From positions 3,339,181-3,403,180 of the forward strand of contig OY775914.1 of assembly GCA_963675215.1 (NCBI GenBank): a DNA stretch of 64,000 nt, written 5' to 3'. The notes beneath the pieces are model-generated. The model had not been told where the DNA came from, did no database searches, and saw only the letters and a program-made list of their open reading frames with translations. Of this stretch, positions 3,698 to 52,720 are shown one piece after another (positions within the stretch are counted from its first letter, which is position 1; each line of letters begins with the position of its first letter). This DNA is from Bacteroidales bacterium (lineage in GTDB: Bacteria; Bacteroidota; Bacteroidia; Bacteroidales; GCA-2711565). The position numbers and the translations under genes are program-made.

Positions 3698-5905
3698 ATG
3701 TCAGAAAAAAAAATCTACCCCGTATTAGGAATGTCTTGTGCATCCTGTGCTTCCAGTGTTGAGAGCATGCTCACTGTGCAGCCGGGTGTGATTTCTGCCA
3801 GTGTCAATTATGCCAACGGCGAAGTTTACATTGAATTTGACAAAAAACTGGCTAATCTCACTGAGATGCAGGAAGCCATTAAAAAGATAGGCTACGAAAT
3901 CATTATTGAGACCAAAGAACCCGAAAAGATTGTCGAAGAAAAGGAGAAAGAGCGATTCATTACGCTCCGGAAAAAACTAATTCTGGCCATTTTTCTAACC
4001 TTACCCATTTTTGTGGTCTCCATGTTTATGATGCCTTTGGCTCAGGCGGATAAATGGGTATTATTAGCATTGAGTATTCCGGTATTGTTTTATTGCGGTT
4101 CCGAATTCTTTATCAATGCATTTAATCAGGCACGGCGCAGATCAACAAACATGGACACCTTGGTTGCTCTGGGAACCGGAGTGGCTTTTATTTACAGTGC
4201 AATTGTAACCATATTCCCTTATTATTTTTTGAATCATGGCTTACCAACCCATGTTTATTTTGAATCTGCCACCGTCATTATTTCCTTCATTTTATTTGGA
4301 AGGTTTCTTGAAGAACGAGCAATAAAAAGAGCGTCTTCTGCTATTCATAAGCTAATGAACCTGCAACCAAAAAAATTAAATGTACTCCGAAACAATCAGG
4401 AAATGCAAATTGCGATTAAAGACGTACTCATTAATGATATCGTGCTTATTAAGCCCGGAGAAAAAATTCCGGTAGATGGAATTGTAGAAAGTGGAGAAAG
4501 TTATGTTAACGAGAGCATGATTAATGGTGAGCCAATCGCACTTCGTAAAACAACAAATGCAAAAGTTTTTGCAGGAACCATTAATCAGAAAGGAAGTTTG
4601 ACAATTATTGCTGAGAAAATTGGAAAAGAAACGCTGTTATCTCAGATCATTGACATGGTGAAAGAAGCCCAAAGGGTTAAACCTCCCATACAAAAACTAG
4701 CAGATAAAATTGCCAGCATCTTCGTTCCTATAGTATTGGCAATTTCACTTTTGACTTTTGGACTTTGGTATTTTTTAGGCCCTGAGCCGAGTGCCACTTA
4801 TGCTTTTGTTACCACCGTTGCAGTACTAATTATTGCGTGCCCTTGTGCTCTGGGATTAGCAACGCCAACAGCATTAATGGTTGGAATTGGAAAAGGTGCA
4901 CAGCATGGCATTCTTATTAAAAATGCTGAAAGCCTTGAAATGGCATACAAAGCAAACACGCTGTGCATCGACAAAACAGGAACACTAACGGAAGGAAAAC
5001 CGAAGGTTAGCGATCAATACTGGATACAGGATAATCCATACTTTAAATTGATTTTAATTGAAATGGAGAAAAAATCTGAGCATCCATTGGCTGGAGCCAT
5101 TGTGGCCGGAATTAAAACTTCGGATAATAAAATCCTCACGTTTGAAAATTTCCAGAACCATCCAGGTTATGGTGTGAGCGCAAGAATAGAAGGGATAAAT
5201 TATTACGTTGGACGATTTGATTTCATTAAAGAAAAAGAAATTCAGATTGAGGCAGCAGCAAAAGCAAAAATAGATCATTGGCAAAGCGAAGCCAAAACAC
5301 TGGTACTGTTTTCAGACGAAAAAAGAATATTGGCTGTAGTAGCAATAACCGATCTGCTTAAGGAAGGAACCCCATTTGCCATTAAAAAGCTAAAACAAAT
5401 GGGCATCGAAACCATTATGCTAACAGGAGATAATGAGAATTCAGCCAGAGCGATTGCAAAGCAATCAGGAATTGAAAAATTTCATGCAGGGATGATGCCT
5501 CAAGAAAAAGTTAAGATCATCAAAGAACTTCAGGCAGAAGGTAAAATTGTTGCCATGGCTGGAGACGGGATTAATGATTCTGCCGCATTGGCTCAGGCAG
5601 ATATTGGAATTGCCATGGCAAGTGGTTCAGACATTGCCCTTGAAAGTGCCGGAATTACCCTGATGAAATCAGATTTAAGCCATTTAATTGGAGCCATTAA
5701 ACTTTCGTTTGCAACGGTAAAAACCATCAAGCAAAACTTGTTCTGGGCTTTCTTTTATAATATCATCGCCATTCCTATTGCTGCCGGAATACTTTACCCA
5801 TTCACCGGATTTTTACTCAACCCCATGATTGCCGGAGCTGCCATGGCCATGAGCTCTGTTACCGTAGTAGCAAATAGTTTAAGATTACGAAAAGTGAGGT
5901 TATAA
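3698..5905 (+). CDS. copA: heavy-metal (Cu(I)-type) translocating P1B-type ATPase
   Basis: N-terminal HMA 'GMSCASCASSVE', TM 'CPC', 'DKTGTLT', 'GDGINDS'. The 'YN' (TM7) and 'MSSVTVVANS' (TM8) residues match the Cu(I) subclass. Confidence 0.9.
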   Translation: MSEKKIYPVLGMSCASCASSVESMLTVQPGVISASVNYANGEVYIEFDKKLANLTEMQEAIKKIGYEIIIETKEPEKIVEEKEKERFITLRKKLILAIFLTLPIFVVSMFMMPLAQADKWVLLALSIPVLFYCGSEFFINAFNQARRRSTNMDTLVALGTGVAFIYSAIVTIFPYYFLNHGLPTHVYFESATVIISFILFGRFLEERAIKRASSAIHKLMNLQPKKLNVLRNNQEMQIAIKDVLINDIVLIKPGEKIPVDGIVESGESYVNESMINGEPIALRKTTNAKVFAGTINQKGSLTIIAEKIGKETLLSQIIDMVKEAQRVKPPIQKLADKIASIFVPIVLAISLLTFGLWYFLGPEPSATYAFVTTVAVLIIACPCALGLATPTALMVGIGKGAQHGILIKNAESLEMAYKANTLCIDKTGTLTEGKPKVSDQYWIQDNPYFKLILIEMEKKSEHPLAGAIVAGIKTSDNKILTFENFQNHPGYGVSARIEGINYYVGRFDFIKEKEIQIEAAAKAKIDHWQSEAKTLVLFSDEKRILAVVAITDLLKEGTPFAIKKLKQMGIETIMLTGDNENSARAIAKQSGIEKFHAGMMPQEKVKIIKELQAEGKIVAMAGDGINDSAALAQADIGIAMASGSDIALESAGITLMKSDLSHLIGAIKLSFATVKTIKQNLFWAFFYNIIAIPIAAGILYPFTGFLLNPMIAGAAMAMSSVTVVANSLRLRKVRL

Positions 5906-6010
5906 GTGATTATTGGTTATTAGTTATTAGTTATTAGTTATTGGTGATCAGTTATTAGTTGTCAGTTAAAGATTCTTTATTCTAATTTTTAACTTCTGTT
6001 TTCTTACTAT
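5906..6010. repeat. heptad-periodic tract (TTAGTTA-type) starting at the base after the copA stop
   Basis: gtgatta|ttggtta|ttagtta|ttagtta|ttagtta|ttggtga|tcagtta|ttagttg|tcagtta, then the ..TTC-ending heptads aagattc|tttattc|taatttt|taacttc|tgttttc. Confidence 0.8.
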
Positions 6011-6200
6011 GATATCATTTTTCTTGTAACTTTTATCATGTGTCTATCGTCTTGATTCCGAATTCTCCTTTTCATCTATACATCATTAAATTATTTTTCC
6101 ATCATCTTAACCTTTAATCTTCTGACACGAATAAAGCCAGAACCGCTTCACATTTTTTAACAAATTAGCAACTAAACAAATCATCTCATTACCAAAAAAA

Positions 6201-6395
6201 ATCCATATCTTTAATCCTGAAATTCTTCCCGTCCGGATAGCAGCTGTTGAATAAGAATTCCAAATTCCCCGTAATTTAAAAATTGTTGTCGTTTTACTTT
6301 TAATCGACAAAATATATGATAATATAGAACCTGTGCAACACATCCCAACCTGTCCACCTATAGAGGATTTGGATGTTATTGGCTAAGAAACGTAA
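6201..6395 (+). repeat. conserved intergenic core, copy X (paralogous to 50711..50875)
   Basis: By-eye alignment: 'TATCTTTAATCCTGAAATTCTTCC..TGTTGAATAAGAATTCCAAATTCCCCGTAATTTA..TTAATCGACAAAATATATGATAAT' versus 'TATCTTTATTCCTGAAATTCTTCC..TGTTGATTAGAATTTCAAACTCCCCATTTATTGA..TTAATCGAAAAAATATATAATTGC'. Weaker similarity continues to a GTTA(T/C) site. Confidence 0.7.
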
Positions 6396-6444
6396 ACATA
6401 TTATTAGCCAGCAATAATTAATAACCTAATTTAAAGGACATCAA

Positions 6445-7671
6445 ATGAATAGATTATTCTTTTTAGTACTTATGGGATTTTCATATTTTTTAAATGCACA
6501 AACAGCACAAGAATTTCCTGTATTGAAAGGAGAATATTTAGGACAAAAACCAGCCGATACAATCCCGAAAATATTTGCCAAAGACATTGTTTCTGATCCT
6601 AGCTGGTATGAACATTGTCAGCTTGCAATATCCCCAAAGGGTGATGAAATTTTTTGGTCCGCATTTTCAAGGGAATACCCCCTTCCTGATGGAAAAGGTA
6701 ATACTGAACAGATATATTATTCGAAAATAGAAAATGAAAAATGGACAAAACCAGCTTTAGCTGAATTTGTTACTGATTATTTAACATATGGGAATGGATC
6801 TCCTGTATTTTCACCAGATGGTAATGGACTATATTTTAATTCAACCAGAACGGGTGGCTTAGGAAGAACTGATGTTTGGTATGTGAAAAGAGAGAATGAA
6901 AAATGGAGTATGCCAGTAAATATAGGTGCACCCGTTAATACTGAAAATGATAATTGGTCCCCATCATTTTCTAATCATGAAACGGCTTATCGCATGGATG
7001 ATTATCAAGATAATTCAGATAATAAACCAATTCGTTTTGTATATCGAAATAACAAGTTTATGGATTCTTCCGTCGTAAAAATTCACCCCGAATTCTATCC
7101 CTGGTATTCTTTTTGCGTATCACCAGAAGAAGATTACATGATTTTTTCCGGTTATCATTATCTTGGTGTTGGTGTACTTGACTTGTATATTTGTTATAAA
7201 GATGAGCAGGGTAGTTGGGGCTATCCGATTATGATGAGAGATCAAATAAACACAGAAACAGTAGAAAGATTTCCTGTAGTTTCTCCTGACGGGAAGTTTC
7301 TTTTTTTCGTTCGACAAGTAGATACGCATAACTTTTATTGGGTATCAACTAAGATACTTGATAAGTATAGAAGTGAAAGTTTAGAAAAAATGAAGAACAC
7401 TCCCCTTTTTAAAGATCTAGAATTAAAAGCTGAAGAAATTGAACAATACCTTGGAGTTTATTCTCCCGTTGATTTGCCTTTTAAATTTACTATAAGCAGT
7501 GAAGAAAATAAATTAAAAATAAGAATGGGTAACTCAACTTATCCATTAGAATGTTATGGTAAAAACAAATTTAAATATGATAAACGGATGATAAAGATAG
7601 AATTCTTTCCAGATGAGAATAGAATGTTTTTTCAATCCGGAATTGAAAAAATAGATTTTCTAAAATTATAA
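6445..7671 (+). CDS. secreted PD40/TolB-like beta-propeller repeat protein
   Basis: Signal peptide MNRLFFLVLMGFSYFLNAQ. Repeated 'SP(K/D)G..(I/L)(F/Y)' blades ('SPKGDEIFW', 'SPDGNGLYFNSTR', 'SPDGKFLFFVR'). Confidence 0.75.
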   Translation: MNRLFFLVLMGFSYFLNAQTAQEFPVLKGEYLGQKPADTIPKIFAKDIVSDPSWYEHCQLAISPKGDEIFWSAFSREYPLPDGKGNTEQIYYSKIENEKWTKPALAEFVTDYLTYGNGSPVFSPDGNGLYFNSTRTGGLGRTDVWYVKRENEKWSMPVNIGAPVNTENDNWSPSFSNHETAYRMDDYQDNSDNKPIRFVYRNNKFMDSSVVKIHPEFYPWYSFCVSPEEDYMIFSGYHYLGVGVLDLYICYKDEQGSWGYPIMMRDQINTETVERFPVVSPDGKFLFFVRQVDTHNFYWVSTKILDKYRSESLEKMKNTPLFKDLELKAEEIEQYLGVYSPVDLPFKFTISSEENKLKIRMGNSTYPLECYGKNKFKYDKRMIKIEFFPDENRMFFQSGIEKIDFLKL

Positions 7672-7696
7672 TTTAAAGGTAGAATTTGCTCAAATG

Positions 7697-7842
7697 ACTT
7701 TCACTAACACCTGTAAATAAAATATGGCAAATCCGTACTCGGCTGAGAAGTAGGCAATTCGTTAACACCTTCCTTTCCGTCGGAAAGAAAAATACTCCGA
7801 AATATTGCAACGTTCCATAGCCTAAAGCTTAGTGCGTTAAGC
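7697..7842 (+). repeat. full-length structured intergenic element A (attC-like imperfect dyad)
   Basis: Starts CACTAACACC..ATATGGCA and ends CCATAG..TTAGTGCGTTAAGC. Nested pairings: cactaa/ttagtg, tatgg/ccata, gcaat/attgc, and a central ctttcc-gtc-ggaaag hairpin. The right end GTTAAGC fits GTTRRRY. Confidence 0.6.
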
Positions 7843-7855
7843 AGAAAAACGAAAT

Positions 7856-8779
7856 ATGAAAGTTAAAAATCAAATTATTGTTTACGGCGGAACTGGCTTT
7901 TATGGACAAAAAGTAGTTGAAAAATTAGTTAAAAAAGGACAGCTTGTAAAAGTGGTTACCCGAAACTCTGAAAATGCTAAGAAAATATTTGGAGATAAAA
8001 TAGAACTATTTCAAGGAGATGTAACGGAAAAAGGAACTATTGAAAAGTCTTTAAAAAATGTTAGTGCTATTGTAATTTGTCTTTCGGCGATGAGTAATAA
8101 ACTGATCAGAAAAATGAAAGAAATTGAGCGTGATGCTGTTTTGGAAATCATGGAAGAAGCAAAAAAAGCGGATATTTCAAGATTAGTTTATATGTCGGGA
8201 TATGAAATGAGAAAACAACTTCTTGATGATTTAAAAATCCCAGAATTTGGAGAAATAAAAATAGAAGTTGAGGCAAAAATCAGACAATCAGATTTTAACT
8301 GGACCATATTAGGCGATGCCCCCGCATTTGAAATATTTTTTGCATTCACAAATAAAGGAAGAATGACGGTACCCGGAGGTGGGTTAAATGCATTTCCAAC
8401 TATATCACCAGAAGATGTTGGAGAGCTAACATCACAAATTGTAATGCGAACAGACTTAAACGGAAGAAGAATAAAATTAACAGGGCCGAAAGCCTATTCT
8501 TTTCCCGAAGTAGCAAAATTAATGTCCTACATAGGTGGAAAAAAAATCAAACATATGGCGATCCCTTTATTTATAATAAACGTGGTGTCATTTTTACTTT
8601 TACCATTTACACCTTTTGTTAGATATTTATATAAGAGTTTAAAAATGCTAAATAATTTTCCAGCAGATTTAGCAGAAAATGTTCCAGGAGATCACAAACT
8701 ATTAAGGGAATTATTTGATTATGAGCCAGTAACCTTGGAAATGGAGATTAATCGTAGAATAAACAATAATACATTATAA
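7856..8779 (+). CDS. NAD(P)H-binding NmrA/SDR-like oxidoreductase
   Basis: N-terminal Rossmann motif 'VYGGTGFYGQKVVEKLVKKGQLVKVVTRN'; 307 aa, an atypical-SDR length. Confidence 0.75.
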   Translation: MKVKNQIIVYGGTGFYGQKVVEKLVKKGQLVKVVTRNSENAKKIFGDKIELFQGDVTEKGTIEKSLKNVSAIVICLSAMSNKLIRKMKEIERDAVLEIMEEAKKADISRLVYMSGYEMRKQLLDDLKIPEFGEIKIEVEAKIRQSDFNWTILGDAPAFEIFFAFTNKGRMTVPGGGLNAFPTISPEDVGELTSQIVMRTDLNGRRIKLTGPKAYSFPEVAKLMSYIGGKKIKHMAIPLFIINVVSFLLLPFTPFVRYLYKSLKMLNNFPADLAENVPGDHKLLRELFDYEPVTLEMEINRRINNNTL

Positions 8780-8807
8780 AACATAGAAATGGAATAAGCT
8801 CATAATT

Positions 8808-9341
8808 ATGAAAAAAACTATTGTAATATTTTATTCAAATAAAGGAAGTAACAGATATTTAGCAAAAAGAATTTCAGAGAATCTGAACTGTGAAATTGAA
8901 GAAATCAAGCCTAAAATAGATGCTCATCTTTTTTTGCTGTTCGGATTAAGTTTCGGAAATAAAAAACCCAAAATAAACTTAGCAGCATACGATAGAGTTG
9001 TTTTGTGTGGACCCATTTGGATGGGTAAATTTATTGCTCCTTTAAAAGGGTTTGTAAAAAAACACATAAATAATATAAATGAATTGGTTTTTGCAACTTG
9101 TTGTGGAAGTAGTTTTGACATGAAAGATAAAAAATTCGGTCATGGACTTGTATTTAAAGAAATCAAAGAAATGCTAAAAGGTAAGTGCATACATTGTGAG
9201 GCTTTTCCAATTACTTTAGTAATCCCTGACGACAACAAAGAAAACCCTGATACGGTAATGAAAACACGACTTACAGATGATAATTTCAAAGGTGAAATAC
9301 TAAATAGATTTAATGATTTTATTAAAAAAATATCAGCTTGA
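8808..9341 (+). CDS. flavodoxin-like fold protein
   Basis: 177-aa ORF beginning 'KKTIVIFYSNKGSNRYLAKRI' (flavodoxin-type beta1-loop). The rest is not diagnostic. Confidence 0.5.
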   Translation: MKKTIVIFYSNKGSNRYLAKRISENLNCEIEEIKPKIDAHLFLLFGLSFGNKKPKINLAAYDRVVLCGPIWMGKFIAPLKGFVKKHINNINELVFATCCGSSFDMKDKKFGHGLVFKEIKEMLKGKCIHCEAFPITLVIPDDNKENPDTVMKTRLTDDNFKGEILNRFNDFIKKISA

Positions 9342-9367
9342 AAAAATATTAAAAATTTGTATTGAAA

Positions 9368-9424
9368 CTACGATAGCAAAACAGTAGCTATAAAACATGC
9401 AAATCTTTACTGGCTGAAACGTAG
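9368..9424 (+). repeat. left-half copy C of the structured element
   Basis: 'ctacgaTAGCAaaacagtagctataaaacATGCAAATCTTTACTGGCTGAAACGTAGG' aligns with the left half of A ('ATGGCAAATCCGTACTCGGCTGAGAAGTAGG'). It ends where the convergent LytTR gene terminates. Confidence 0.55.
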
Positions 9425-9436
9425 GAGGCGCGCTGA

Positions 9437-10183
9437 CTACTGATCCAACCAAGCCTTGAAATCAGCCACCCGCTCTCTGGCCACAATTATTTCTTCTTCA
9501 AGGCCTTGAATTTTTAATCGCAAGCGGCTGTTGGTCCAAGCCAACACATCAGCACAAGCGCGATGCGAAACGATGAATTTCCTGCTAATTTTAAAAAATA
9601 TTTCAGGGTTTACCAACTGTTCTATTTGTTCCAACGAATAATCGATCACATATGATCTTTGATCTTCGGTAAACAAAAAACTGGCTTTTGCCATGCTATA
9701 AAAAGCCAGAATTTTATCTGTTTCTATGCTTTTTATTTTATCTCCAACCTTAATCATAAACCTGTTTTTAAATGAAGGCATATTCAAGCTCGTCATTAAA
9801 CTTGCGATTTGCTCAATTGCCATCGGTTTTTGAATGGTTTTGAGCTTATCAAGGGCCTGTTTTAAGCGAGCTTCTTCGATTGGTTTTAATAAATAATCGA
9901 TGCCGTTGGTTTTAAAAGCTTCAATGGCGTATTGATCGTAGGCCGTTGTAAAGATAATGGGACAAAACAACTGATGCTTTTCAAAAATTTCAAAACTTAG
10001 ACCATCTGCTAACTGAATATCAGCAAACACCAACGAAACAGTATTATTTGCTCTAAAAAAAGCGATTGCATCCCGCACCGACTCAAAAACACCAATTATA
10101 CGCATCTCAGGAGCCAGCTTTTTTATCAACAATTCCAATCGATTTGCTGCTCTGTGTTCATCTTCCAATATCACTACATTCAT
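9437..10183 (-). CDS. LytR/AlgR-family response regulator (REC + LytTR DNA-binding domain)
   Basis: REC N-terminus 'MNVVILEDE..' with acceptor 'FADIQLADG'; the C-terminal ~100 aa are LytTR-like. Overlaps the upstream kinase gene by 4 nt. Confidence 0.9.
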   Translation of the reverse strand: MNVVILEDEHRAANRLELLIKKLAPEMRIIGVFESVRDAIAFFRANNTVSLVFADIQLADGLSFEIFEKHQLFCPIIFTTAYDQYAIEAFKTNGIDYLLKPIEEARLKQALDKLKTIQKPMAIEQIASLMTSLNMPSFKNRFMIKVGDKIKSIETDKILAFYSMAKASFLFTEDQRSYVIDYSLEQIEQLVNPEIFFKISRKFIVSHRACADVLAWTNSRLRLKIQGLEEEIIVARERVADFKAWLDQ

Positions 10184-11421: not shown

Positions 11422-12063
11422 TTACTTACTCACCTGTCGCAATAATCCTTCCACTTGACTTTTTCCCCAATTTGGATGTATAGGAGATTTTGGTTTGTAA
11501 TTATCCCAGTCGGCTAGTAAACTTTCTAGGGCATCTCTGTAATCGGCAGGATCTTTCCCATAAAAGCTGGAACTGCCAATATCCTCTGCCAATTTCATAT
11601 ATCTGGCTCTTGGATTGTTAGGCTCCATCGCCAAAGCTTTACCAATGGTTTGGCCAAACAACATCCCATATTCCTGACCTCTGTTCATCGGATCGATAAC
11701 CAATTTTGCGGTATAATAAAATGCATTTAAGGCGATCACTTCCACCTCATTGGGGGCCAGTTCCAACATCCTGTTGATTGAGGTTTCGGCCTCAACCAAT
11801 AGGGCATCTTTATGTGAAGCATCATCTTGCGACATGAAACTCATAATGATATAAGCGTGGGCATGATAGTATAACGGCAACCATTCTTCTTTCTCAATGT
11901 TTGAGATCATTTTAAACTGATTGGCCATTTTTTGGAAATCCTCAACGGATTTGCATTTCCCATATTGGTCAATAGATTCACTCATTTTTTGTTGAAATTG
12001 TGCTTGTGAAAAACCTGTGAGGCTGATCAAAGTAATTGCTAATGTTAAAATTGTTGTTTTCAT
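11422..12063 (-). CDS. secreted helical protein of unknown function
   Basis: Signal peptide MKTTILTLAITLISLTGFSQA; 213 aa. Sits immediately downstream of the TonB-dependent receptor on the same strand. Confidence 0.7.
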   Translation of the reverse strand: MKTTILTLAITLISLTGFSQAQFQQKMSESIDQYGKCKSVEDFQKMANQFKMISNIEKEEWLPLYYHAHAYIIMSFMSQDDASHKDALLVEAETSINRMLELAPNEVEVIALNAFYYTAKLVIDPMNRGQEYGMLFGQTIGKALAMEPNNPRARYMKLAEDIGSSSFYGKDPADYRDALESLLADWDNYKPKSPIHPNWGKSQVEGLLRQVSK

Positions 12064-12092
12064 TTTATTTGGTTTTAGATTATTATTTATAG

Positions 12093-12134
12093 TTACTGGT
12101 TTCTTGATACTTGATACTTGTTTCTGGTTACTTG
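12093..12134. repeat. heptad-periodic tract
   Basis: ttactgg|tttcttg|atacttg|atacttg|tttctgg|ttacttg, between two minus-strand genes. Confidence 0.7.
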
Positions 12135-12175
12135 TTTAAAAATATTCTCATTCATAACTTATAATTCATTACTTA

Positions 12176-14450: not shown

Positions 14451-14618
14451 TGAATCTTGTATCTATTTTCTAGTTACTGGTTCCTAGTTACTGGTTCCTA
14501 GTTACTGGTTTCTGGTTCCAATTTTCTGGATTCTAAATTCTGTCTTCTGGTTTCTCTATTCTATTTTTCTGTCTTGTATCTAGTATCTATTATCTTGTAT
14601 CTTAAATCTGTTTTCTTT
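14451..14618. repeat. long heptad-periodic tract (about 24 heptads, including 14-nt units TAGTTACTGGTTCC)
   Basis: tgaatct|tgtatct|attttct|agttact|ggttcct|agttact|ggttcct|agttact|ggtttct|ggttcca|attttct|ggattct|aaattct|gtcttct|ggtttct|ctattct..., then tatctag|tatctat|tatcttg|tatctta. Confidence 0.85.
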
Positions 14619-50677: not shown

Positions 50678-50705
50678 AACTTGCCTGTTGCAAGCAGGTT
50701 TTCAA
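50678..50705 (+). terminator. terminator-like hairpin
   Basis: aaacttgcctg-ttg-caagcaggttt imperfect stem followed by TTC. Confidence 0.45.
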
Positions 50706-50710
50706 ATTTA

Positions 50711-50875
50711 TTCCTTATCTTTATTCCTGAAATTCTTCCTGCCCTTGGGAAGTAATTGTTGATTAGAATTTCAAACTCCCCATTTATTGAATTTTTAGCT
50801 CGGTTTTAATTAATCGAAAAAATATATAATTGCACAAAAGCTAGCTAATACATGTCTATATAGGTGAATATAGTT
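50711..50875 (+). repeat. conserved intergenic core, copy Y (paralogous to 6201..6395)
   Basis: See copy X. Confidence 0.7.
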
Positions 50876-50953
50876 ACTAAAGATGCCCATATATAGTCGT
50901 TAGGTTTAATGCAAAAAAAGGGAACAAAAATTGACTACGTGTACTAATTTTTA

Positions 50954-52068: not shown

Positions 52069-52175
52069 AGCCCAACAAAAGCTATGGTTCATGGCGCTCA
52101 GACAGGTTACGAAATCTTAGGGTTTTCCTGCCTACGGCAGGCAGGTGCCACGTAACCATCGCAATACAGTTAGCG
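52069..52175 (+). repeat. full-length structured intergenic element D (attC-like imperfect dyad)
   Basis: GCCCAACAAAAGCTATGGTTCATGGCG....CCATCGCAATACAGTTAGCG. Nested pairings: aac/gtt, atggtt/aaccat, tggc/gcca, and a central cctgcc-tac-ggcagg hairpin. Starts 8 nt after the Fic stop. Confidence 0.6.
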
Positions 52176-52663: not shown

Positions 52664-52720
52664 CTGCTGCTAACAAAGGCTCATAAAACATGGCTAATTC
52701 TTACTCAGCAGAAACGCATT
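52664..52720 (+). repeat. left-half copy B of the structured element
   Basis: 'ctgctgCTAACAAAGGCTCATAAAACATGGCTAATTCTTACTcagcagAAACGCAT'. ctgctg/cagcag can close a stem. Starts 3 nt after the stop codon. Confidence 0.55.

Follow-up and report, generated by a model that had tools for sequence, protein, structure and literature searches.

Gene Organization Around Element A

The DNA analyzed here is a window of 64,000 nucleotides (C1:3339181-3403180) from the 4.05-Mb, single-contig genome (35% G+C) of a Bacteroidales bacterium; coordinates without a prefix are those of the window. Element A, an imperfect dyad, is flanked on the same strand by a 408-aa ORF (6445-7671, + strand) before it and a 307-aa ORF (7856-8779, + strand) after it. 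The upstream ORF encodes a secreted PD40/beta-propeller-repeat protein (PF07676, PD40) with partial matches to proteins of the PorE (T9SS)/CHU_0125 type, families that are consistent with Bacteroidota. The only ortholog found, 75% identical, is encoded by genome G001, in an unrelated context that contains no attC site. The stop codon of the PD40 ORF is located 30 nt upstream of Element A, which bears out the earlier observation that the element lies behind a gene of the same orientation. The downstream ORF corresponds to an NmrA-like NAD(P)-binding protein (PF05368/PF13460) and is followed by a gene for a flavodoxin-like protein (8808-9341, + strand; PF12724). In the interpretation developed below, the PD40 protein would be the cargo of a first cassette, and the NmrA-like and flavodoxin-like proteins that of a second one.

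In the complete genome of a congener (G007), copA is followed by about 108 nt and then by a convergent LytTR gene, after which the genes for a histidine kinase, a 213-aa protein and a TonB-dependent receptor are arranged as they are in the window. Therefore, the 3.5 kb that lie between copA and the LytTR gene in the window (5906-9436) represent an accessory island. From left to right, this island comprises a heptad-repeat tract, an attI-like platform (module X, described below), the PD40 gene, Element A, the NmrA-like and flavodoxin-like genes and a truncated attC site. Its left edge, made of the heptad-repeat tract and a spacer, begins right after the copA stop codon (5906-6186, + strand). 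Its right edge is the truncated attC (9376-9425, + strand), which consists of a left half only, agrees with the left half of type-1 sites in 43 of 52 columns and breaks off 11 nt short of the stop codon of LytTR, a convergent gene. As nhmmer gave no match for the 200 nt surrounding 9376, the site was scored by pairwise alignment against an empirical background; of 4000 random 100-nt pieces of the window, taken from either strand, only 3 reached its score.

The region 3' of copA is also occupied in another congener, G002, where the attI-like half of a platform module (Part 2, see below) is followed by other accessory genes. This locus is therefore a recurrent docking place. In G002 (L063, contig C33, about 7553-7652 and 3827-3941), a Part 2 module and four same-strand accessory genes are observed, together with a weak attC-like match (11.6 bits) just before the first conserved gene. 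The whole looks like a parallel island that was filled differently. As for the heptad-periodic tracts (TTATTAG-type and GTTACTG-type), they are found after stop codons at three places in the window (5906-6010, 12058-12150, and 14453-14559). Similar tracts follow copA in G002, G004, and G007, which indicates that they are intergenic features of the genus as a whole, unrelated to the cassette system.

Complementary Blocks and Ends of Element A

The preliminary description had taken positions 7697-7842 as a single unit and had proposed an integron attC site on the basis of nested complementary blocks and of its ends. All the blocks that it named are found in the sequence: cactaa (7702-7707) and ttagtg (7829-7834), tatgg (7723-7727) and ccata (7815-7819), gcaat (7754-7758) and attgc (7804-7808), and the central hairpin CTTTCC-GTC-GGAAAG (7773-7787). 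The idea of a nested dyad holds in this respect only, since the fold as a whole is at chance level and the blocks are not coaxial, with an asymmetry of 20 nt between the tatgg/ccata and gcaat/attgc pairs.

The limits of the unit have to be corrected. According to a covariance model of the repeat family (R1, see below) and to blastn, Element A proper is a decayed attC that extends over about 7702-7834 on the + strand (or to 7842), and its right end was probably misplaced. Within these limits, the R'' box reads CACTAAC (7702-7708), the L'' box is degraded (7711-7716), the L' box reads CATAGCC (7816-7822) and the R' box, at the spacing seen in the family, reads CTTAGTG (7828-7834). The latter is also the complement of CACTAAC, and 6 of its 7 positions pair with R''. 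The GTTAAGC heptamer formerly regarded as the right box (7836-7842, + strand; aligned by eye) is indeed present and fits GTTRRRY, but it sits 8 nt past the homologous box. It pairs with R'' through TAAC/GTTA alone, and it can be aligned with the CGTTA of the family only if a 7-nt insertion, TTAGTGC (7829-7835), is allowed. If TTAGTGC was inserted, GTTAAGC could possibly be a second or the original R' box, as a by-eye alignment to the family variant CATAGCCTAAACCGTTA would have it. Also by eye, GTTAAGC and the bases that follow (GTTAAGCAG) resemble the right half of the attI-like sites, GTTAGCAAC. Concerning the left end, the TAACAAA start reminiscent of Vibrio VCR repeats is a property of the intact family (TAACAAAGGCT); Element A itself reads CTAACACCTG.

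A Genome-Wide Family of attC-Type Sites

The R1 model was built from 25 array sites located elsewhere in the genome, and its E-values are rough because the calibration was short. Searching the genome with R1 gives 94 sites, about 85 of which are in two same-strand arrays. The main array (C1:2547041-2627090) contains at least 72 sites, all on one strand, and a satellite at 1.31 Mb contains 6. A search for the right-end motif TAGCCnAACCGTT gave 72 occurrences at 2.547-2.627 Mb and 6 at 1.31 Mb, all of them in minus-strand orientation. Consensus ends of the family are nnnYAACAAnRGCT...CATAGCnAAACCGTTnnn, with AAC and GTT invariant among the aligned copies. Sites of this family are found in 18 of 41 related genomes, usually in 2-13 copies.

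Sequence comparisons support a conserved secondary structure. In the R box (TAAC/GTTA), the L box (GCT/AGC) and a 6-bp stem, 97.6% of the alignment cells are paired, and compensatory changes between subfamilies are seen in five pairs. Neither this pairing nor this covariation was reached by any of 500 shuffles, and sliding the partners against each other, as a control, destroyed the pairing of the array sites. RNAalifold detected part of the structure in a mixed-subtype alignment, and it was completed manually with the R box and two further pairs, which were verified by counting pairs. Moreover, the bottom strand is the more stable one in 77 of 77 array sites (mean -30.9 versus -27.7 kcal/mol).

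The junctions between sites carry a further signature, which is the most telling of all. The six bases that follow GTTA are the reverse complement (at least 5 of 6 positions) of the six bases that precede the TAAC of the next site at 61 of 70 junctions in the main array, a count that may be slightly inflated by the use of complementarity to the previous site as a tie-breaker in the choice of the left box, and at 5 of 5 junctions in the satellite. The match of the same six bases to the right end of their own site is mostly far lower. The nine exceptions all fall on long intervals, in which a site probably escaped detection. This complementarity between neighbors is the footprint of cassette exchange, with a crossover between G and TT. 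In 41 cassettes the longest ORF has the orientation of the attC, in 16 it is reversed, and in another 13 no ORF reaches 40 aa. With these hallmarks, the repeat family behaves as integron-type attC sites.

The main array also shows some peculiarities of composition. Roughly twelve cassettes of about 381 bp, hardly different from one another, share the left box AAATGGTAAC and are devoid of any ORF of at least 40 aa; they are present in C1:2569839-2610706, singly and in tandem runs along the array. Type-1 sites, such as C1:2589271-2589402, have a right arm (TTTGCCACGTTTC) with two possible partners in the left arm, AAAACATGGCAAA and, 26 nt further in, GAAACGTGGGCAA. These alternatives correspond to two competing hairpins, a long one closing the R and L boxes and a short one.

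In the window, two further members of the family accompany Element A and the truncated site at 9376-9425. Element D (52070-52174, + strand; R1 55.6 bits, E 4.5e-13) is a second full attC of the superfamily and closes a cassette with a Fic gene. A second truncated attC, again a left half, follows a 140-aa ORF (52668-52716, + strand; nhmmer E 7.7e-8, model positions 3-51).

The preliminary description had noted that random scatter of the repeat relative to gene ends would speak for a REP-like element. The distribution just described, with about 85 of 94 sites in two same-strand arrays and 7 of the 9 others behind platforms, is the opposite of scatter. It bears directly on the view that Element A would be a REP/MITE-like repeat or an element acting at the RNA level (a 3'-UTR stabilizer, a terminator or a small RNA) that happens to resemble an attC. 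A 3' intergenic position on the transcribed strand would suit such an element, and the truncated left halves at the ends of blocks could suggest an autonomous left-half module. Besides the clustering of the copies, this view is opposed by the crossover signature of the arrays, which is specific to site-specific recombination at G|TT, and by the RNA fold of Element A, close to that of shuffled sequences on the + strand (z = -0.21) and little better on the - strand (z = -1.87). Searches of Rfam, with the whole window at gathering scores and with 7500-8000 at E-values up to 10, returned chance-level matches only; the attC model of IntegronFinder is not part of Rfam. A scan of 5800-9600 for terminators and sigma-70 promoters, the latter ill-suited to Bacteroidota promoters, found nothing at Element A. 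An origin of Element A as a repeat or RNA element of this kind appears very unlikely. The REP/MITE-type and intrinsic terminator readings were rejected as such, given the array clustering and the lack of any terminator-like site.

Element A as a Decayed Copy

Element A belongs to the family by homology. R1, built without it, recognizes 7702-7833 (+ strand) with 66.3 bits (E 5.4e-16). This score places Element A 82nd among the 94 genome matches, the array copies reaching 108-139 bits. When Element A is used as a blastn query, about 21 other copies are retrieved with 77-82% identity over a core that corresponds to 7717-7825 (109 nt), at E-values of about 1e-23. They comprise 16 copies at 2.556-2.619 Mb and 4 at 1.310-1.313 Mb, these 20 being all on one strand, as well as a copy at 3.518 Mb. 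That the dyad would have arisen by chance might be argued from the folding energy of Element A alone, which equals that of shuffled sequences, but it is refuted by the E-value of 5e-16 given by a model made from other loci and by the blastn matches to at least 20 loci; the probability left to this reading is negligible.

The structure is eroded. In the R1 alignment, 6 of the 17 conserved pairs are non-canonical in Element A. Two of the three L-box pairs are broken, the family GCT having become GTA, and the extrahelical C is gone. One R-box pair is also broken, with a C opposite a C, because GTT became CTT. Four of six stem pairs and three of four R-box pairs are kept, as are the TAAC/GTTA core and the central hairpin. 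Folding of the bottom strand, one of the checks proposed at the outset, gives -12.1 kcal/mol, with z = -0.37 against shuffles. Bottom-strand DNA folds elsewhere range from -24 to -49 kcal/mol for the array sites, and one intact member has z = -4.5. The divergence of Element A is about 20%, whereas among the array copies very little variation is seen, even from one species to another. A search with an Element A-specific 20-mer gave one unrelated chance match in the genome collection and none in the metagenome collection, and this sequence variant was found in no array of the other genome or metagenome contigs searched.

The features that usually define an attC are thus unevenly represented. Element A stands at the 3' end of an ORF in the same orientation, with a truncated site after it and an attI-like module before it, as does the end of a cassette. 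The L box and bulged hairpin are not retained. No crossover signature is apparent between module X and Element A, the match extending to 7 of 15 positions, which is close to chance for AT-rich DNA. The left boundary of a cassette, GTTAGTGAAA (the reverse complement of the left box), was also sought in the window and gave chance-level matches, none of them upstream of the PD40 ORF. As far as the sequence can tell, Element A is an attC-type site by descent that has decayed. The original proposal of an attC was right as to the kind of element, through its family, but the fold, the L box and the R' triplet of this particular copy speak against an intact site.

A Tyrosine Recombinase Linked to the Main Array

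No tyrosine recombinase is encoded in the window, as already stated in the preliminary description, and the nearest match is more than 200 kb away. The main array begins 340 nt downstream of a gene for a 383-aa tyrosine recombinase (C1:2627432-2628583) encoded on the same strand, the only array-linked one in the genome. This protein contains PF13495 and PF00589 domains. It scores 192.7 bits against the XerA/integron-integrase model (cut-off 220) and 178.5 bits against the IntI model TIGR02249 (cut-off 265), in two stretches that skip model positions 182-238. Furthermore, about 45 residues of VchIntIA (PDB 2a3v) have no counterpart in the array recombinase. The skipped positions and this gap indicate that the recombinase is devoid of the IntI-specific insertion. 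The missing stretch of VchIntIA includes the segment that reads extrahelical bases. When the genome was searched for intI, as had been suggested, no gene reached the TIGR02249 cut-off, and no complete integron is present by that standard.

At the other end of the protein, an N-terminal extension (residues 1-105, approximately) has no match in Pfam or NCBIfam. This extension is conserved in the congener orthologs, with matches spanning residues 1-383 of the query. Orthologs of the recombinase occur in three congeners, with 76-87% identity, and in two of these (G011 and G007) same-strand attC sites are located directly downstream of the gene.

Orphan attI-Like Platforms

Upstream of several attC sites, a composite module is found of which the genome has about 20 copies. 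A profile was built from nine of them, including modules X and Y of the window. Part 1 of the module comprises a TAnnTTTA box, the inverted repeat GAAATTCTT...AAGAATTTC and CTCCCC. It is followed by a short AT-rich hairpin and then by (C)GATGAAATATAA. Part 2 corresponds to ...GGATGTTATTGTGCAAGAAACGTGTACATATATACTA|GTTAGCAAC. In the main integron, Part 1 stands just before the start codon of the recombinase gene and Part 2 runs from its stop codon (...GATGATTTTGAAATATAA). The two parts flank the recombinase gene there, and the orphan modules therefore look like integron heads without that gene.

Details of Part 1 can be compared at three places, the window sites 6206-6271 and 50715-50790 and the region upstream of the recombinase (C1:2628617-2628690). 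The TAnnTTTA box is a near match to the -7 promoter motif of Bacteroidota. The inverted repeat has the layout GAAATTCTT-N25-AAGAATTTC, and mismatches in its arms are single and not compensatory, which makes it more like a protein operator than like an RNA helix. Part 1 may be the promoter and operator of the recombinase and of the orphan cassettes, as judged from these motifs. In the orphans (for instance at C1:3517330-3517350 and at 6310-6330 of the window), the (C)GATGAAATATAA stretch before Part 2 is similar to the final codons of the recombinase gene, stop codon included (GATGATTTTGAAATATAA). This likeness suggests either that the platforms lost the gene or that the gene entered a pre-existing platform.

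In order to characterize Part 2, the bases after its GTT were compared with the left end of the next attC downstream, taken in reverse complement. They match at 10 of 10 positions in the main array, about 16 of 19 in the 1.31-Mb satellite, about 14 of 17 at the 3.517 Mb platform, 13 of 14 at the 8.6 kb platform and 8 of 9 at the 3.450 Mb platform. For module Y and Element D, the match is 11 of 14 (junction GTTAGGTTTAATGC). In addition, 7 of the 9 attC matches outside the arrays are located at most 3 kb downstream of a same-strand platform. By these sequence relations, Part 2 of the module behaves as an attI-like site.

Both modules of the window are orphans. Module Y (50698-50935, + strand) scores 170.8 bits and module X (6187-6448, + strand) 150.8 bits over its full length, each being among the nine source copies of the profile. 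Before the profile existed, Part 2 of the main array had been used alone as a query and had retrieved module X weakly (E 0.021). Module X stands immediately before the PD40 ORF. Its Part 1 includes the TAnnTTTA box (6206-6213), the arms GAAATTCTT (6219-6227) and AAGAATTCC (6253-6261), and TTCCCC (6266-6271). Its putative attI-like Part 2 (6349-6415) has GCC as core triplet (6407-6409), in place of the GTT of the family.

Origin and Present State of Element A

Taken together, the data make it quite probable that Element A is a degenerate attC forming the 3' boundary of the PD40 cassette, the first of two cassettes in an integrase-less mini-array (CALIN). How this island was formed can be proposed by analogy. 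The array recombinase (C1:2627432-2628583) would have acted in trans, and circular cassettes would have been inserted into module X by recombination of a folded, single-stranded attC with attI at G|TT. The sites would then no longer have been maintained: the core of module X would have changed from GTT to GCC, the R' box of Element A would have changed from GTT to CTT or received a 7-nt insertion, the L box and part of the stem of Element A would have been lost, and the last attC would have been truncated. The cassettes would now be fixed chromosomal genes. Insertion in trans, entry at module X and the order of these events are what we infer from the present arrangement. In particular, since the junction between module X and Element A matches at 7 of 15 positions, entry of this cassette at module X is deduced from the architecture of the island. 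Likewise, as the recombinase is devoid of the IntI-specific insertion, the mechanism is extrapolated from classical integrons.

Alternatively, Element A may be a divergent attC that still functions, the recombinase moving the PD40 cassette in trans with GTTAAGC (7836-7842) as R' box. Integron integrases tolerate diverse attC sequences. GTTAAGC fits GTTRRRY and, once the 7-nt insertion is accepted, the right end (CATAGCCTAAAGC...GTTA) is one base off the family variant CATAGCCTAAACCGTTA; the TAAC/GTTA core, four of six stem pairs and the central hairpin have been retained. This view is however difficult to reconcile with the loss of the L box and with a bottom-strand fold no better than that of shuffles. 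The partner site, module X, has GCC in place of GTT and the junction rule fails there. Finally, Element A has diverged by about 20% and the array copies are nearly identical. On balance, a functional site appears improbable, and the degenerate attC is preferred. Element A is most likely dead for recombination, or nearly so; the survival of GTTAAGC, of the kept pairs and of the hairpin makes some residual activity possible.

On a larger scale, a "distributed integron" can be imagined, in which a single recombinase serves in trans the 80-kb array as well as at least 10 recombinase-less attI platforms, the island of Element A being a fossilized member. Each platform would head a small cassette island at a different locus of the core genome, and the platforms would be either duplicated heads minus the recombinase gene or a native docking unit that the gene entered. 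We consider this extension tentative, its chances being somewhat short of even.

Comparison With Known Systems

Surveys with IntegronFinder found almost no integrons in Bacteroidetes. The system described here points to integron-type cassette capture in a lineage of Bacteroidota, where integrons are reported to be nearly absent, and to the delivery of cassettes beyond the main array, at several orphan attI-like platforms. Element A provides a sequence-level example for the idea that isolated attC sites arise from degraded cassettes (Cury et al., 2016). Taken alone, it is an ordinary outcome; the dispersed attI-like platforms are more notable. If these platforms are active, they would explain the origin of CALINs at many loci. 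With them, the actual need for the IntI insertion, the domain thought to read folded attC sites, could also be studied in a tractable system.

The family shares many traits with the attC sites of sedentary chromosomal integrons (59-base elements, Vibrio VCRs). Its members have AAC in the left box and GTT in the right box, and they form an imperfect hairpin made of an R box, an unpaired spacer, an L box and a variable center. Their bottom strand is more stable, and they are located 3' of promoter-poor cassettes in one orientation. The crossover at G|TT is also reminiscent of chromosomal integrons, as are the size and homogeneity of the array, which adjoins a tyrosine recombinase gene and an attI-like site. 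Some traits are nevertheless unlike those of integron attC sites. The sites of the family are long (125-182 nt), and the complementarity between cassette start and left box reaches 10-16 nt. Type 1 shows a single clear extrahelical base, a G of the bottom strand, and type 2 has a different bulge. Element A itself departs further, being devoid of the L box, of one R-box pair and of the fold.

The recombinase can be compared with the integron integrases (IntI; TIGR02249, PRK15417) and with the Xer/XerA tyrosine recombinases. Its PF13495 and PF00589 domains are typical of IntI, and its best matches are the XerA/integron-integrase model, the IntI model and VchIntIA (PDB 2a3v). Unlike IntI, the protein scores below both cut-offs, has no equivalent of positions 182-238 and carries about 105 additional N-terminal residues. 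In contrast to classical integrons, its gene is on the strand of the cassettes, and the encoded protein is without the IntI-specific insertion.

Clusters of attC sites without an integron integrase are known as CALINs (Cury et al., 2016, PMC4889954; Néron et al., 2022, PMC9024848), and it has been proposed that such clusters and lone attC sites can arise by degradation of cassettes or through integration by an integrase encoded elsewhere (Cury et al., 2016, PMC4889954). If a CALIN is defined by two or more attC sites in 4 kb that have no integron integrase in their vicinity, the island of Element A is one: two attC-family sites, called by the family model, are separated by 1.5 kb, and no recombinase is encoded in the 10 kb around them, only elsewhere in the genome. 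What sets this CALIN apart is that the block has its own attI-like platform with a promoter-region module, and this platform holds about 12-17 nt that resemble the last codons of the recombinase gene. These two features argue that the island resulted neither from insertion at a secondary site nor from a simple split of the main array.
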